Source: Cyanobacteria bacterium SOY_65_metabat_81 (GTDB lineage: Bacteria > Cyanobacteriota > Cyanobacteriia > Pseudanabaenales > Pseudanabaenaceae). Taken from it: a stretch of DNA of 64,000 bases. The stretch spans positions 35,224-99,223 of the forward strand of contig JANODY010000006.1 of assembly GCA_031412945.1 (NCBI GenBank), in the 5' to 3' direction. A program made the translations under genes and the position numbers. Positions 4,466 through 50,708 of this stretch are shown piece after piece. Within the stretch, counting starts at the first letter, position 1; every line of letters begins with the position of its first letter. The notes under the pieces are model-generated. The model was not told the origin of the DNA and did not search any database. It was given only the letters and a program-made list of their open reading frames with translations.

Positions 4466-4585
4466 TGCTGATAACCCCTAAATTTGGTTTTGTGAATAGA
4501 CATGTAGATTAATTAACGAGTTCTTCTGGTTATTCTACTTTGGTCACTGACAACTTATGCTGTCTCAAATATAATGGATCACAAA

Positions 4586-4720
4586 TTGACACTCTCAACA
4601 CCGAAGTGACTGAGATTCCTGATTCAGCGAGACAACTTACCAACCTGACCTTAGATCTGGAAAGCAGAGGTCGAACTCTCCACAGGCGTAGAAATTTGGG
4701 TATGCCCTACCCTATTTAAA
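4586..4720 (-). ncRNA. Candidate omega-RNA (reRNA) scaffold overlapping the tnpB 3' end and right end
   Basis: In TnpB systems the guide RNA derives from the tnpB 3' end plus the right end. Here there is a conserved block with a UUCG-capped hairpin (CAC-TTCG-GTG) immediately 3' of the stop. The 5' boundary is a guess. Confidence 0.4.
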
Positions 4721-5859
4721 CCAATAGCCAAGATATTCAAAGCCGCATTATGGTCACGATCCAAAACAGTACCGCAATGACTGCATTGATGAGTGCGCTC
4801 ACTCAGCGATTTCTTGACTGTTGTTCCACAGGTTGAACAATTCTGGCTCGTATATTGTGGTGGCACGGCGATCGTCACCTTACCAAATACTTTGCCAAAA
4901 TACTCAACCCAATCTCGAAACATATACCAGCTAGCGTCAGATATTGACTTAGCTAATTTATGATTCTTGACCCTTACGGGTTTGCCAGTCGCTTCAAGTC
5001 GGTAAACCCGCCCAACGCGCTGGCTCACCATATTCCTCACCTGCAAATCTTCATAGGCAATCAGGTCGTTAGACCGAACTACGCACCTTGCTGTCTTTAC
5101 TGCAAAGTCTTTACGCTGCCTACTTACTTGCAAATGTTTTCTTGCTAACCGTTTTATTGCTTTTTTACGATTAGCTGATCCTCTCTTTCGCTTAGCAACT
5201 TTACGCTGCAACTTCTTGAGTTGACGCTCTGATTTTCTAAGAAATTTAGGGTTCTCAACAGTGTTGCCACTACTATCGGTATAGAAATGGTTTAATCCAA
5301 CATCTAAACCAGTTGTGGTTTGAGTTGGTGTCATTTCTTCCCTGCGATCAACATCAACACAGAATTGAGCGTAGTAACCATCAGCCCTTTTTACCAGCCT
5401 GACTCGTTTAATTTGCTCGATCGCGTAGAAGTTTAAATCGCGAGAGCCAACTAATTTGAGCCTGCCAATCTTGAAACCATCGGTCAAAGTTAGATATTTA
5501 CGATCTTCAGATAGTTTCCACCCAGTTTGTTTGTACTCAACTGAGTGACCTCGCTTCTTGAATTTTGGATATCCTTTCTTGCCTGATACTTTCTTTTTGC
5601 AGTTATCAAAGAATCGATTGATTGTGGCCCAGGCTCTCTCAGCGCTGGACTGTCTTGCCTGCGAGTTTAGCTTCTTAGCAAAATCAAACTCCTTGGCTAA
5701 TACAGCACACAGCGCAGATAGATCATATTTACTAGCACCTCGATTGTCCATCCAGTGCCTCAAAGCCTTATTACGCACGAACAGAGCCGTACGAATCGCC
5801 TCGTCAATGAGACCATACTGCCCTGTTTTGCCTTTTAGTTTTGCTTCGAGAACCAACAT
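4651..5859 (-). CDS. tnpB: RNA-guided endonuclease TnpB (IS605 OrfB family)
   Basis: 402 aa. RuvC triad candidates are D in TGLDVGLN, E in IAYEDLQV and D in LDRDHNAALN. Zinc ribbon CSTCG...CSHCG. Confidence 0.9.
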   Translation of the reverse strand: MLVLEAKLKGKTGQYGLIDEAIRTALFVRNKALRHWMDNRGASKYDLSALCAVLAKEFDFAKKLNSQARQSSAERAWATINRFFDNCKKKVSGKKGYPKFKKRGHSVEYKQTGWKLSEDRKYLTLTDGFKIGRLKLVGSRDLNFYAIEQIKRVRLVKRADGYYAQFCVDVDRREEMTPTQTTTGLDVGLNHFYTDSSGNTVENPKFLRKSERQLKKLQRKVAKRKRGSANRKKAIKRLARKHLQVSRQRKDFAVKTARCVVRSNDLIAYEDLQVRNMVSQRVGRVYRLEATGKPVRVKNHKLAKSISDASWYMFRDWVEYFGKVFGKVTIAVPPQYTSQNCSTCGTTVKKSLSERTHQCSHCGTVLDRDHNAALNILAIGLNRVGHTQISTPVESSTSAFQI

Positions 5860-6290
5860 GAGTTTGGCTTAATCTTAGTCTTACTATCATAGCGTAAGTG
5901 TTGCTAATTGTGACATAATCTAGAAGAGCAAAGCGAATAAGTTCGCTCGTCCGATTTTTGTCTCAGTATCTTATATTATTCTTTTAATGTTTGCCAGATT
6001 TTATTTTAGGCGAAATCACCAGTTAATATCCTCTCGATCGCGATGATTCGCCTTAGCAGATTGTTTCTGTTCGGGGCTTACAGTCGCTCCACAGACATTA
6101 ACCCTGAGTTTCCCCCTTGCCATATTGTTTGTATAATCTAAATAGGGGTGGCAAATGTGGTAATTGACGATCGCGCTATTTACCGCGCTATTTAAGGGGG
6201 AGATTGTCTTTAAGCCCTAGTCTAAAGTAAACTTTTGCTAAGCATAAAAAACAAGTTATAAAATCTTTTTGAAATACATAAGGAAAATTA

Positions 6291-29685: not shown

Positions 29686-30111
29686 TTAAGCTGCAACTAG
29701 ACAGGCAGAAGCTTGGTGTTTAGCATCAAACTGATCCATAAACTCATCAACACTAGGAAAGATGGCAAATAGTTGATCAATTCTTGAGATTTCAAATACA
29801 AATCTAATAGAGGATTGTTGAGAACACAGTAATAAATTACTGTGTTGAGCTTGCATTAATCTGAGCGCGGCTAACAGTTTTTGTAAACCCTGACTGTCGA
29901 TAAACTCTACATTTCCCATGTCAACTATCAAAACAGGAATTTCTTTGTTATTCATCATCATATTGGCTGAAACCCACGATTCAACCTTAGCCAATAAATC
30001 GGATCCCGCAAAGCTATCGAATTTATTACTGGTCAATTTAATAATAAAAGCTGGATCGCTATTTAACCCATGACGGAAGGATGACTGGTTGATCTTAGTA
30101 ATTGTATCCAT
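29686..30111 (-). CDS. STAS domain protein (anti-sigma-factor antagonist-like)
   Basis: VLIVDMGNVEFIDSQGLQKLLAALRL. ATG at 30111 is preferred over the TTG at 30126. Confidence 0.8.
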   Translation of the reverse strand: MDTITKINQSSFRHGLNSDPAFIIKLTSNKFDSFAGSDLLAKVESWVSANMMMNNKEIPVLIVDMGNVEFIDSQGLQKLLAALRLMQAQHSNLLLCSQQSSIRFVFEISRIDQLFAIFPSVDEFMDQFDAKHQASACLVAA

Positions 30112-30319
30112 TGTTCTTCCTTGCAAATTTTTTAGAGAATAATAGTCTGATTTCTAAGTCGCATTGGTGAGAACAACATCTACATCTTGTTTCACAATGT
30201 CAACAAATGTTTTATTGTCTCTTGAGCCTTATTATTCACTTTTTTCTAAACGATGAAACATCCAAGAGATATATAAAAGTTAGTAAGAAAGATTAAAAGG
30301 TTATATAAAAGTTACTTTT

Positions 30320-30377
30320 TTGACAATCTTCAGCCTAAAGGCGTGAGGATTGCTGATTCAGCGAGACAACTTACCAA
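30320..30377 (-). mobile_element. Orphan copy of the tnpB right-end / omega-RNA 3' module
   Basis: On the minus strand it shares TTGGTAAGTTGTCTCGCTGAATCAG (25/25) with 4619-4643, then a hairpin with compensatory changes, then TGTCAA. There is no tnpB alongside. Confidence 0.7.
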
Positions 30378-30393
30378 ATAGACCATTATTATT

Positions 30394-30439
30394 TATAGCA
30401 ATCCTGAATGATTTATAGCTTTTTAAGAGTTGTGAGAGG
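30394..30439. repeat. Degenerate fragment of MITE family B
   Basis: TATAGCAATCCTGAATGA...GAGTTGTGAGAGG matches the reverse complement of the right arm of copy B2 (CCTCTCACAACTCATTTAGGATTGCTATA). No second terminus is present. Confidence 0.55.
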
Positions 30440-30467: not shown

Positions 30468-31862
30468 TTAGACTAGTTCCCCAAATAGGTCGTAGTGATC
30501 GGCGGCGGTGATTTTGACAGAAAACATTGAGCCTAGCGTGGCTTTGCCTTGTGGGTCGCGGATATAGACGACACCATCCACATCAGGGGCAAATCTTGCC
30601 GATCGCCCAATTAGTTCGCCCGTATCGGGATTTTCCTGTTCGATCAAGACATCAACGGTTTTACCGATTTCGGCTTGGTTGTTTTTGAGCGAGATCTCTT
30701 GTTGGGCGGCCATGAGGCGATCGCGGCGCTCTTGTTTGACTTCTTCGGGGATTTGATTAGGCAAATCAAAGGCGGCTGTCCCTTCTTCGGCGGAGAAAGT
30801 AAATACGCCGACATGATCGAACTCATGACGCTTCACAAATTCTAATAAATGCTCGAACTGCTCTTCGGTTTCATCGGGAAAACCAACAATAAAAGTGGTA
30901 CGGGTGACGGCGTTAGGGAGCGCCGCTTTGATTTGTTCAACGATCTTGTCATTGATCCGCCCTTGCCAAGGACGATTCATCGCTTTTAAGACTTCGGGAT
31001 GGGAGTGTTGTAAAGGCAGATCAAGATAAGGAACCACATTAGGCGTGGACTTCATGGCGTTGATTACCTTCGGGGTCAGCCCTGTGGGGTAAGCATAATG
31101 CATTCTGATCCAAGGCACATCGACCTGACCGAGGGCGGTTAATAGTTCGGCTAGGCGCGGCTGACCGTAAATATCTAAGCCGTAATTAGTCGTAATTTGA
31201 GAAATTAAAATAATCTCTTTTACGCCCTCAGTGGCGAGGCGATCGCACTCAGTCACAATCGACTCAATAGTTCGCGATCGCTGATCCCCGCGTAAATGGG
31301 GAATGATGCAAAAAGCACAACGATAATCACAGCCCTCCGCCACGCGCACATAGGCGACCGCCTCATTGGTGGTGCGATAGCGCGGCACAGTGTCATCAGC
31401 GATATAGGTAGGAACGGCGGTGATCTCTTTGACCCGCTCCCCTGTTTCGGCGCGTTCGATCACATCGACAATTTTGTAATAGTCCCCCGTTCCGACTAGG
31501 GCAACAGCTTCAGGGATTTCATCAAGTAGTTCTTGTTGAAAGTGTTGCGCCATACAGCCAGCGATCACAATGCGTTTGCCCATTTCTGCAAGCTCTACCA
31601 AAGTTCGCACCGATTCTTGACGGGCATCTTCGATAAAGCTACAGGTATTAACGATCACATAATCGGCTAATTCTTCATTGCTATCGACTTGATAGCCAGC
31701 CTGCACTAACAATCCCAACATGTGTTCGGTATCGACGCGGTTCTTTTCACAACCCAAATGAGAGAAAGCGATCGTGGGCTTGATCGTAGCTTTGACGGTT
31801 GGAACCAGATTGACCATATTTGTATTAACGTAATCTTTGACGCGCAAAATTTCAATTGACAT
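30468..31862 (-). CDS. rimO: Ribosomal protein S12 methylthiotransferase
   Basis: UPF0004 N-domain LGCEKN, radical-SAM CDYRCAFC, C-terminal TRAM domain. Confidence 0.92.
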
Positions 31863-42345: not shown

Positions 42346-42432
42346 GGAGAGGTGGCAGAGTGGTTGAATGCGTCTGACTCGAAATCAGATTTGGGGTCAC
42401 ACCTAACGGGAGTTCGAATCTCCCCCTCTCCG
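42346..42432 (+). tRNA. tRNA-Ser (anticodon CGA)
   Basis: 87 nt, class II with a long variable arm. Acceptor GGAGAGG/CCTCTCC, anticodon arm TCTGA-CTCGAAA-TCAGA, T-arm GGGAG-TTCGAAT-CTCCC. Confidence 0.9.
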
Positions 42433-50627: not shown

Positions 50628-50708
50628 GTAAGCGGAGACGCAAGTTTCCGTTCACTCCTCACACCACATTCCGCCTGAGCTTATGAGCAGCAAAGGCGGT
50701 TTTTTCTT
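50628..50708 (+). ncRNA. yfr1: Cyanobacterial sRNA Yfr1
   Basis: Exact ACTCCTCACAC (50654-50664) lies unpaired between a 5' hairpin (CGGAGA-CGCAAG-TTTCCG) and a terminator (CCGCCT-17 nt-AGGCGG followed by TTTTTT). TACAAT -10 at 50616-50621. It lies about 200 nt upstream of trxA. Confidence 0.8.

Follow-up and report, generated by a model that had tools for sequence, protein, structure and literature searches.

Introduction

Insertion sequences of the IS200/IS605 group leave remnants of many kinds in bacterial genomes. In Geobacillus stearothermophilus, decayed or partial IS200/IS605 ends and non-autonomous tnpB-only elements have been catalogued (Meers et al., PMC10055086). Palindrome-associated transposable elements (PATEs) are IS200/IS605 derivatives without a gene, and they may be a source of omega RNAs that act in trans (PMC10055086). 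In the case of ISFba1, the guide RNA of TnpB is based on the RAGATH-18 motif and needs upstream stem-loops and pseudoknots for cleavage (PMC11061315).

The locus described here lies in a 64-kb window, by which we mean the whole stretch of DNA that was analysed (64,000 nt). A short module without tnpB, referred to below as the orphan, is located in the spacer between a rimO-like gene and a STAS-domain gene, and it shares sequence with the right end (RE) of an insertion sequence (IS) resident elsewhere in the window. Our results indicate, with a probability of about 0.88, that the orphan is an inert solo right end left by a dead IS copy in the rimO-STAS spacer.

Results

The 25-mer TTGGTAAGTTGTCTCGCTGAATCAG is found exactly at 4619-4643 and 30353-30377, both on the minus strand, and these are its only two occurrences in the 64-kb window. 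Allowing up to 3 mismatches revealed no further copies in the window beyond 4619-4643 and 30353-30377, and in dinucleotide shuffles the expected number of matches at this tolerance is 0. Downstream of each copy come 33 nt that comprise a hairpin and a terminal TGTCAA, and the two modules (4586-4643 and 30320-30377, minus strand) are both 58 nt long, with TGTCAA ending at 4586 and 30320, respectively. The hairpin of the resident IS reads CTCA-GT-CAC-TTCG-GTG-T-TGAG, and that of the orphan reads TCA-C-GCC-TTTA-GGC-TGA. The shared 25-mer, the equal lengths, the differing but paired hairpins and the TGTCAA ends had all been reported in the first-pass annotation, and every one of these sequence statements held on recheck. 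The orphan had also been placed downstream of the rimO stop codon with no tnpB attached. This is correct, the distance past the stop being 90 nt.

In the resident IS copy (4586..5966, minus strand), the tnpB ORF and the guide-RNA 3' module are intact, whereas the left end is truncated; the limits of the copy are drawn from a multi-copy comparison across the genus. Its tnpB (4651..5859, minus strand) codes for a protein of 402 aa that matches the Pfam families OrfB_IS605 (4.9e-28) and Cas12f1-like TNB (2.7e-22) and scores 284.5 bits with the guided_TnpB model NF040570. The closest solved natural protein is ISDra2 TnpB (8bf8, E 5e-30). When 41 Pseudanabaena genomes were searched with the IS region, the element proved to be multi-copy in the genus, and the copies were homologous to the window from 5966 to 4586-4584. 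The family RE finishes in ...GTGTCAA, and the flanks diverge right after it. The first base of this terminus is G in 58 and A in 4 of the 62 full copies, and T in the orphan. The left ends in relatives extend ~45 nt beyond that of the resident copy and follow TTAC in one subfamily and TTATC in another; the target-adjacent motif (TAM) and the cleavage sites are read from these flanks only.

Several further observations concern the resident copy and its surroundings. As a transposon, the resident copy is itself damaged: its left end (5960-5970) is ~42-47 nt shorter than in copies from three other genomes (G041, G014, G035), and the 5' arm of the left-end hairpin falls within the missing part. 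An in-frame insertion of 54 nt (~4973-5026), located just after the RuvC glutamate region, distinguishes its tnpB from dozens of copies in relatives and also occurs in a fragment elsewhere in the genome (C123:11298-11584). Directly upstream of the IS, a second relic (~6045-6107, minus strand) shows homology to another tnpB lineage (C113:49351-50260, C101), namely to its 3' coding end and the 5' part of its guide RNA (..GTCTGTGGAGCGACTGTAAG..); at those loci, this lineage ends in the same hairpin and GTCAA. The window also contains an Rfam Yfr1 (cyanobacterial functional RNA 1) match at 50632-50701 on the plus strand (44.6 bits; gathering score 38) and tRNAs at 2470-2540 and 42346-42432.

In this assembly, which is 99.45% complete in 145 contigs, no IS200-type TnpA was found. 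There were two PF01797 matches, and the better one resembles a REP-associated tyrosine transposase (RAYT), scoring 80.6 bits with NF047646 versus 37.7 bits with the IS200 model (cut-off 55). The only clear Y1 transposase, RAYT-like, is located at C65:52105-52470 of this genome (G000; L103:1468-1947, minus strand) and adjoins priA.

The structure of the guide-RNA 3' module was derived from an alignment of 14 full 3' ends from 12 genomes (A2). The A2 fold consists of a long-range stem, formed by CCTGTGGAGAGTTCGACC inside the tnpB coding end and the 25-mer, and a separate 7-bp terminal hairpin followed by GTGTCAA. The pairing partners of the 25-mer in the full copies are all situated 30-65 nt upstream, in the tnpB coding end. 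In the resident copy, the 25-mer module starts 8 nt after the tnpB stop codon, and the full guide-RNA (omega RNA) 3' module (4581..4706, minus strand) includes the core long-range stem, the terminal hairpin and GTGTCAA. With R1, a covariance model of the full 3' module, the resident copy scored 130.9 bits versus 32.1 bits for the orphan, whose 5' pairs are non-standard in the R1 alignment. Rfam RAGATH-18 (RF03064) matched the resident module at 4616-4686 with 25.2 bits (E 0.015-0.03), which is sub-threshold (gathering score 44.9); on the orphan region, the Rfam search at E up to 10 gave no RAGATH-18 match and nothing else of relevance. In addition, the orphan region as RNA folds no better than shuffled sequences (z -0.67). 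A complete omega RNA scaffold has 5' stem-loops, the core long-range stem and a 3' extension, with the guide right after it; of this scaffold, the orphan retains no more than the terminal hairpin and the 3' strand of the core stem, together with the terminal TCAA. Its 25-mer is identical to that of the resident IS because this strand is nearly invariant across the whole IS family.

The orphan corresponds to the last ~70 nt, at the 3' end, of a tnpB-only element of the IS200/IS605 type, the body of which has been lost. Homology to full-length copies is confined to 30320..30389 (minus strand), which is the whole IS-derived remnant, and this homology bears out the first-pass description of a tnpB right-end or omega-RNA 3' module lacking tnpB. 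On its 5' side, the remnant extends ~12 nt beyond the 25-mer, and these nucleotides (30378..30389, minus strand) are a relic of the tnpB stop-codon context ATAATGGTCTAT typical of one subfamily. The ...AGATAATGGTCTAT... context 5' of the 25-mer is also present in two full copies (L027, in genome G034, and L079) and two fragments (C13a, C13b). The 25-mer itself (30353..30377, minus strand), a duplicate of 4619-4643, is the 3' strand of the RAGATH-18-like core stem, and its partner is missing. It is followed by the terminal hairpin TCCTCAC-GCC-TTTA-GGC-TGAAGA (30327..30349, minus strand), which has one C.A mismatch and is of the 'CCTCACGCC/GGCTGAGG' subfamily type, and by TTGTCAA (30320..30326, minus strand), the transposon right terminus, for which the family consensus is GTGTCAA. 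The adjacent 20 nt (30300..30319, minus strand) are ancestral flank, kept upstream of the STAS gene in 11 relatives; in the event of transcription through the end, they would serve as the 'guide'.

On its upstream side, the remnant is separated by 4 nt (30390-30393) from the end fragment (...GGATTGCTATA) of an unrelated MITE-like repeat (30394..30437, minus strand), which is 93% identical to C41:13711-13754. At least 20 related ends of this repeat exist in the genome; the family end reads ...AATGATTTAGGATTGCTATA, and the usual body is a palindrome CGACTTCGCTCAGCC...GGCTGAGCGAAGTCGAAGCC. An orphan-specific G>C at 30352 makes AGCAATCCT (30346-30354, minus strand) a perfect 9-nt complement of the MITE end AGGATTGCT (30397-30405) ~40 nt upstream. 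This pairing is used in the minimum-energy fold of the region with z -0.67, and the complementarity is probably due to chance. The RimO-like gene (30468-31862, minus strand; UPF0004, Radical_SAM and TRAM domains) lies on one side of these repeats, and the STAS-domain gene (29686-30126), upstream of which the orphan lies, on the other.

This arrangement bears on whether the orphan could be a still-mobile gene-less mini-element of the PATE or MITE type. Such an element would have both ends with no gene between them, and PATE-like elements of related lineages do occur in the genus (L111, L116, L118) and in this genome (C99, C53). However, the orphan consists of an RE only. No left-end homology or left-end hairpin was found upstream of it, where the DNA belongs to the unrelated repeat family (44 nt), and this effectively refutes the reading. 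A tblastn search of this part of the contig gave no tnpB match. There is also no suitably placed TTAC or TTATC target-adjacent motif and no second copy with the same 5' junction. Thus, a mobile mini-element at this site is hardly credible.

The comparison with related genomes was consistent with a solo end. Both rimO and the region upstream of the STAS gene are conserved in 11 relatives, whereas the module is absent at the orthologous site. Homology with these relatives resumes at window positions 30321-30314, at the RE terminus, and ~195 nt of conserved STAS upstream sequence is retained in this genome. The coincidence of the RE terminus with the resumption of synteny indicates that a genuine insertion once ended here and that the element has since lost all but its last ~70 nt. 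In the relatives (L002-L012), the shared ...AATAACTTTTATATAAC flank is directly preceded by a conserved ~60-nt block (TTTTGGTATAT...TTATCAAATTTATAGC...). The present genome lacks this block and has scraps of the MITE and the IS in its place, and no TTAC or TTATC was found at the position of the orphan site that a clean insertion needs. Since the block is missing and no TAM is in the expected place, the history must have involved more than one event, and a single-step history with a clean reconstruction of the empty site was rejected. A TTTGGTA 7-mer that also occurs in the relatives' block was considered as a microhomology junction and rejected, because the IS-derived sequence reaches 12 nt further upstream; its sharing is probably due to chance.

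The loss of the ~60-nt block, together with the altered terminus, is what could speak for a role of the remnant in cis, either as a structure in the rimO 3' UTR or as an outward promoter element of the STAS gene. Through a G>T specific to the orphan, GTGTCA has become TTGTCA, which agrees with TTGACA at five of six positions and might act as a -35-like box, and a TATATAAC stretch follows it by 13-15 nt. However, the spacing is off, with good -10-like hexamers at 13-15 nt and only TAACCT at 17 nt, and the consensus scan gave no minus-strand promoter here. The retained ~195 nt of STAS upstream sequence probably has a promoter of its own. As for an RNA structure, the fold of the region is no better than that of shuffles, and a terminator role was rejected, since the hairpin is not followed by a U-run and neither strand has a T-run after it. 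Co-option in cis is therefore considered unlikely.

Remnants of this kind were found to be abundant. The genome that harbors the orphan has 1 intact element of the family and 2 longer fragments (C13b, C21) in which the 3' guide-RNA module is still complete, besides ~10-19 matches that are partial or divergent. A full copy of the hairpin subfamily to which the orphan belongs was not detected in this genome. Across the genus, 21 of the 41 Pseudanabaena genomes gave matches, 175 in total, and the best 150 of these 175 were split roughly evenly between matches of at least 85 bits (full 3' modules) and matches of 30-60 bits. Inspection of 20 partial matches revealed 5' truncations, internal deletions, diverged copies and gene-less PATE-like elements of related lineages. 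For example, L114 is an internal deletion in which the left end and 8 codons are fused into the 25-mer. Of 65 exact 23-mer matches elsewhere, ~58 retain the partner strand upstream; among the others, 4 are located at contig ends and 3 represent true solo ends. Comparable solo ends are scattered, and their flanks are unrelated. The first-pass annotation had proposed a genome-wide census and regarded many decayed copies without the paired stem, together with a lack of transcription from the orphan locus, as the mark of neutral debris; many decayed copies do exist, some of them with damaged stems.

A truncation hotspot at the tnpB stop codon was also considered. The solo ends examined first seemed to be cut within ~15 nt of each other, but in a wider sample the cuts were spread between -11 and +35 nt relative to the start of the 25-mer, and internal deletions were included. 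The hotspot was rejected, and no such claim is made for matches that had been selected for exactly this -11 to +35 range.

The gene-less PATE-like elements (L111, L116 and L118 in G048, G033 and G036; C99:8166-8301 and C53:25959-26088 in the own genome) are ~200 nt long. Each combines a left-end hairpin and a variant guide-RNA-like body with the same terminal hairpin and GTGTCAA as in the family. Several tnpB lineages and these gene-less mini-elements have the right-end hairpin and TCAA in common.

The difference between the two hairpins had been taken in the first-pass annotation as compensatory base change, and the covariation as a sign of selection on structure. In the family alignment, 94.9% of the cells of the terminal hairpin are paired, and both sides have changed in 4 of the 7 pairs. 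The covariation score was 0.444 versus 0.244 +/- 0.034 in shuffled alignments (0 of 500 reached it) and 0.04-0.12 when the partners were slid. At least five stem variants were observed, including TCTCAG/CTGAGA, TCCCCG/CGGGGA, TCCTCA..GCC/GGC..TGAGGA and TCACCG/GGGGA. The stems of the orphan and the resident IS differ because the stem sequence is free to covary between subfamilies. The differing stems are therefore real, but they are two of these at least five subfamily variants rather than a compensation between the two loci. Similarly, selection on structure holds at the family level, given the double changes and the shuffles, but it says nothing about selection at the orphan locus.

The variant of the orphan, CCTCA(C/T)GCCTTCAGGCTGAGG, is present in four full copies of other genomes (CCTCA(C/T)GCCTTCAGGCTGAGGAGTGTCAA in L027/G034, L043, L079 and L089). 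Judged from its sequence, the orphan hairpin is an inherited variant of another subfamily and not a local compensation. The left- and right-end hairpins are alike in one subfamily (CTCAG..TTCA..CTGAG) and unlike in the other, and the hairpin might be a DNA hairpin bound by TnpA rather than an RNA feature.

Relative to the variant of these four copies, the orphan has four substitutions in its last 33 nt. It has C at the closing base of the core stem, where all 62 full copies have G; the loop shows C>T; a G>A in the stem breaks a pair and leaves the C.A mismatch; and the terminus starts with T in place of G or A. By a fixed count of 7-nt strands, the orphan hairpin has 5 of 7 pairs, versus 6 in an undamaged copy of the same type. 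The 37 nt upstream of the hairpin (12 + 25) agree with the family consensus without a change, which could mean that the relic is young; taken alone, this agreement leaves room for constraint on the 25-mer. Stems with at most 5 of 7 pairs were found in 6 of 20 solo ends versus 2 of 60 full copies (Fisher p = 0.0025), a difference that is suggestive only, the copies being few, phylogenetically related and non-independent. The count covers 20 hand-curated solo ends only, as an automated whole-genome count had many false anchors.

The sequence next to each end was searched in the genome as 20-, 16- and 12-mers, and only the loci themselves and chance 12-mers were obtained. The first-pass annotation had proposed testing whether the 16-20 nt adjacent to the orphan match a target; they have no second genomic match at up to 1 mismatch. 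The would-be guide of the resident IS likewise has no other genomic match at up to 1 mismatch. A match to the own locus only is what would be expected of a homing guide, and it leaves a guide acting in trans without a target.

Use of the orphan in trans was another option raised in the first-pass annotation. A rimO read-through RNA could contain the module, and a crRNA-like piece from the rimO 3' UTR might then act as a TnpB decoy or as half of a split guide: the 25-mer would pair with the 5' scaffold half supplied by the resident IS (4644-4770), and the resident TnpB would be loaded with 30300-30319 as guide. As the 25-mer is 100% identical to the resident 3' strand, the cis pairing with the 5' strand of the IS could be reproduced at 24 of the 25 positions. 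Both the resident tnpB ORF and the guide-RNA module that goes with it appear intact, and the use in trans of omega RNAs from gene-less PATE elements is accepted in the literature (PMC10055086). However, the 5' strand of the core stem and all upstream scaffold are missing from the orphan, and the base after the 25-mer is the C that replaces the otherwise universal closing G. The hairpin carries its mismatch, the 20-mer and 16-mer of 30300-30319 match their own locus only, and the consensus scan gave no minus-strand promoter-like site in the spacer. The absence of the module at the orthologous site of the 11 relatives also speaks against this option, as does the debris-like scatter of similar solo ends among unrelated flanks. 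The trans-used guide or decoy is thus disfavored by the lack of a 5' scaffold, the absence in relatives and a guide with no other match, and we regard it as very improbable. If the split-guide reading were true, the guide RNA would be naturally divided in two and would stand between omega RNAs made in one piece and tracrRNA:crRNA pairs, with a bearing on how the latter arose from the former.

Discussion

Our results are best explained by a solo right end. The first-pass annotation had listed a solo end left by deletion among its options, and this option fits the RE boundary, the 5' truncation, the missing scaffold and the absence of the module in 11 relatives. A copy of the CCTCACGCC-TTCA-GGCTGAGG hairpin subfamily would have inserted with its right terminus (...GTGTCAA) abutting the present position 30319. 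Through a later deletion or rearrangement, the element would then have lost tnpB together with its left end, and also two-thirds of the guide-RNA scaffold on the 5' side. This event probably involved the MITE whose end adjoins the remnant, 4 nt upstream. The remnant would have been drifting since, and no function needs to be assigned to it. The sequence of events (insertion, arrival of the MITE, deletion) and the absence of a function are what we infer for this locus.

The finding is already known in kind, the orphan being one of many decaying ends of TnpB-type IS in Pseudanabaena, and it matters little in itself. For annotation, it explains the repeat of the 25-mer and identifies the rimO-STAS spacer as a patchwork of mobile-element scraps. 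In addition, some findings at the level of the family may be of modest use, namely the overlap of a RAGATH-18-like guide-RNA core with the tnpB coding end in this TnpB lineage, the strong covariation of the terminal hairpin, and the occurrence of one type of hairpin and TCAA right end in several tnpB lineages and in PATE-like elements.

The set described in G. stearothermophilus is similar to the present one in several respects. In both, the 3' part of the omega RNA lies within the RE, with the guide directly next to it, and most family members lack tnpA. The genomes are littered with copies of varying completeness, and both end hairpins and the terminal motifs are conserved. In contrast to that set, the orphan comprises only the last ~70 nt with no left end and is neither a tnpB-only element nor a PATE, and no autonomous TnpA was found in this genome. 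Of the features that define an IS200/IS605 element, a TnpB with OrfB_IS605/RuvC and zinc-ribbon domains (in the resident copy) and the shared RE are present, whereas a left end of the orphan and TnpA were not found. The orphan resembles a PATE in having no protein-coding gene and in combining an RE with sequence derived from an omega RNA. However, a PATE has both ends and usually a complete omega RNA, while in the orphan the left end is missing and less than half of the scaffold remains.

The guide RNAs (reRNA) of the RAGATH-18 type, known from IS607-type TnpB such as that of ISFba1 (PMC11061315; RF03064), have a core that folds like the one observed here, with a CCUGUGGAG...GAAUCAGG closing stem and an inner GAG/CUC stem, followed by a 3' extension and then the guide. 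Unlike the ISFba1 reRNA, which is fully intergenic, the motif here overlaps the tnpB coding end, and its match is sub-threshold. The orphan has the 3' strand only, and the protein of this family is nearer to ISDra2/IS200-type TnpB than to the IS607 type. ISDra2 and IS608 differ from the present family in that left and right hairpins are alike in just one subfamily here, with cleavage sites deduced from flanks only. As in the ISDra2 TnpB-omega RNA system (8bf8, 8exa, 8h1j), the TnpB of which is homologous, the omega RNA overlaps the 3' end of tnpB and runs to the RE. Similarly, the family has TTAC or TTATC at the left flank and an RE ending in TCAA, in agreement with the TTAC target and the TCAA right cleavage site of IS608.
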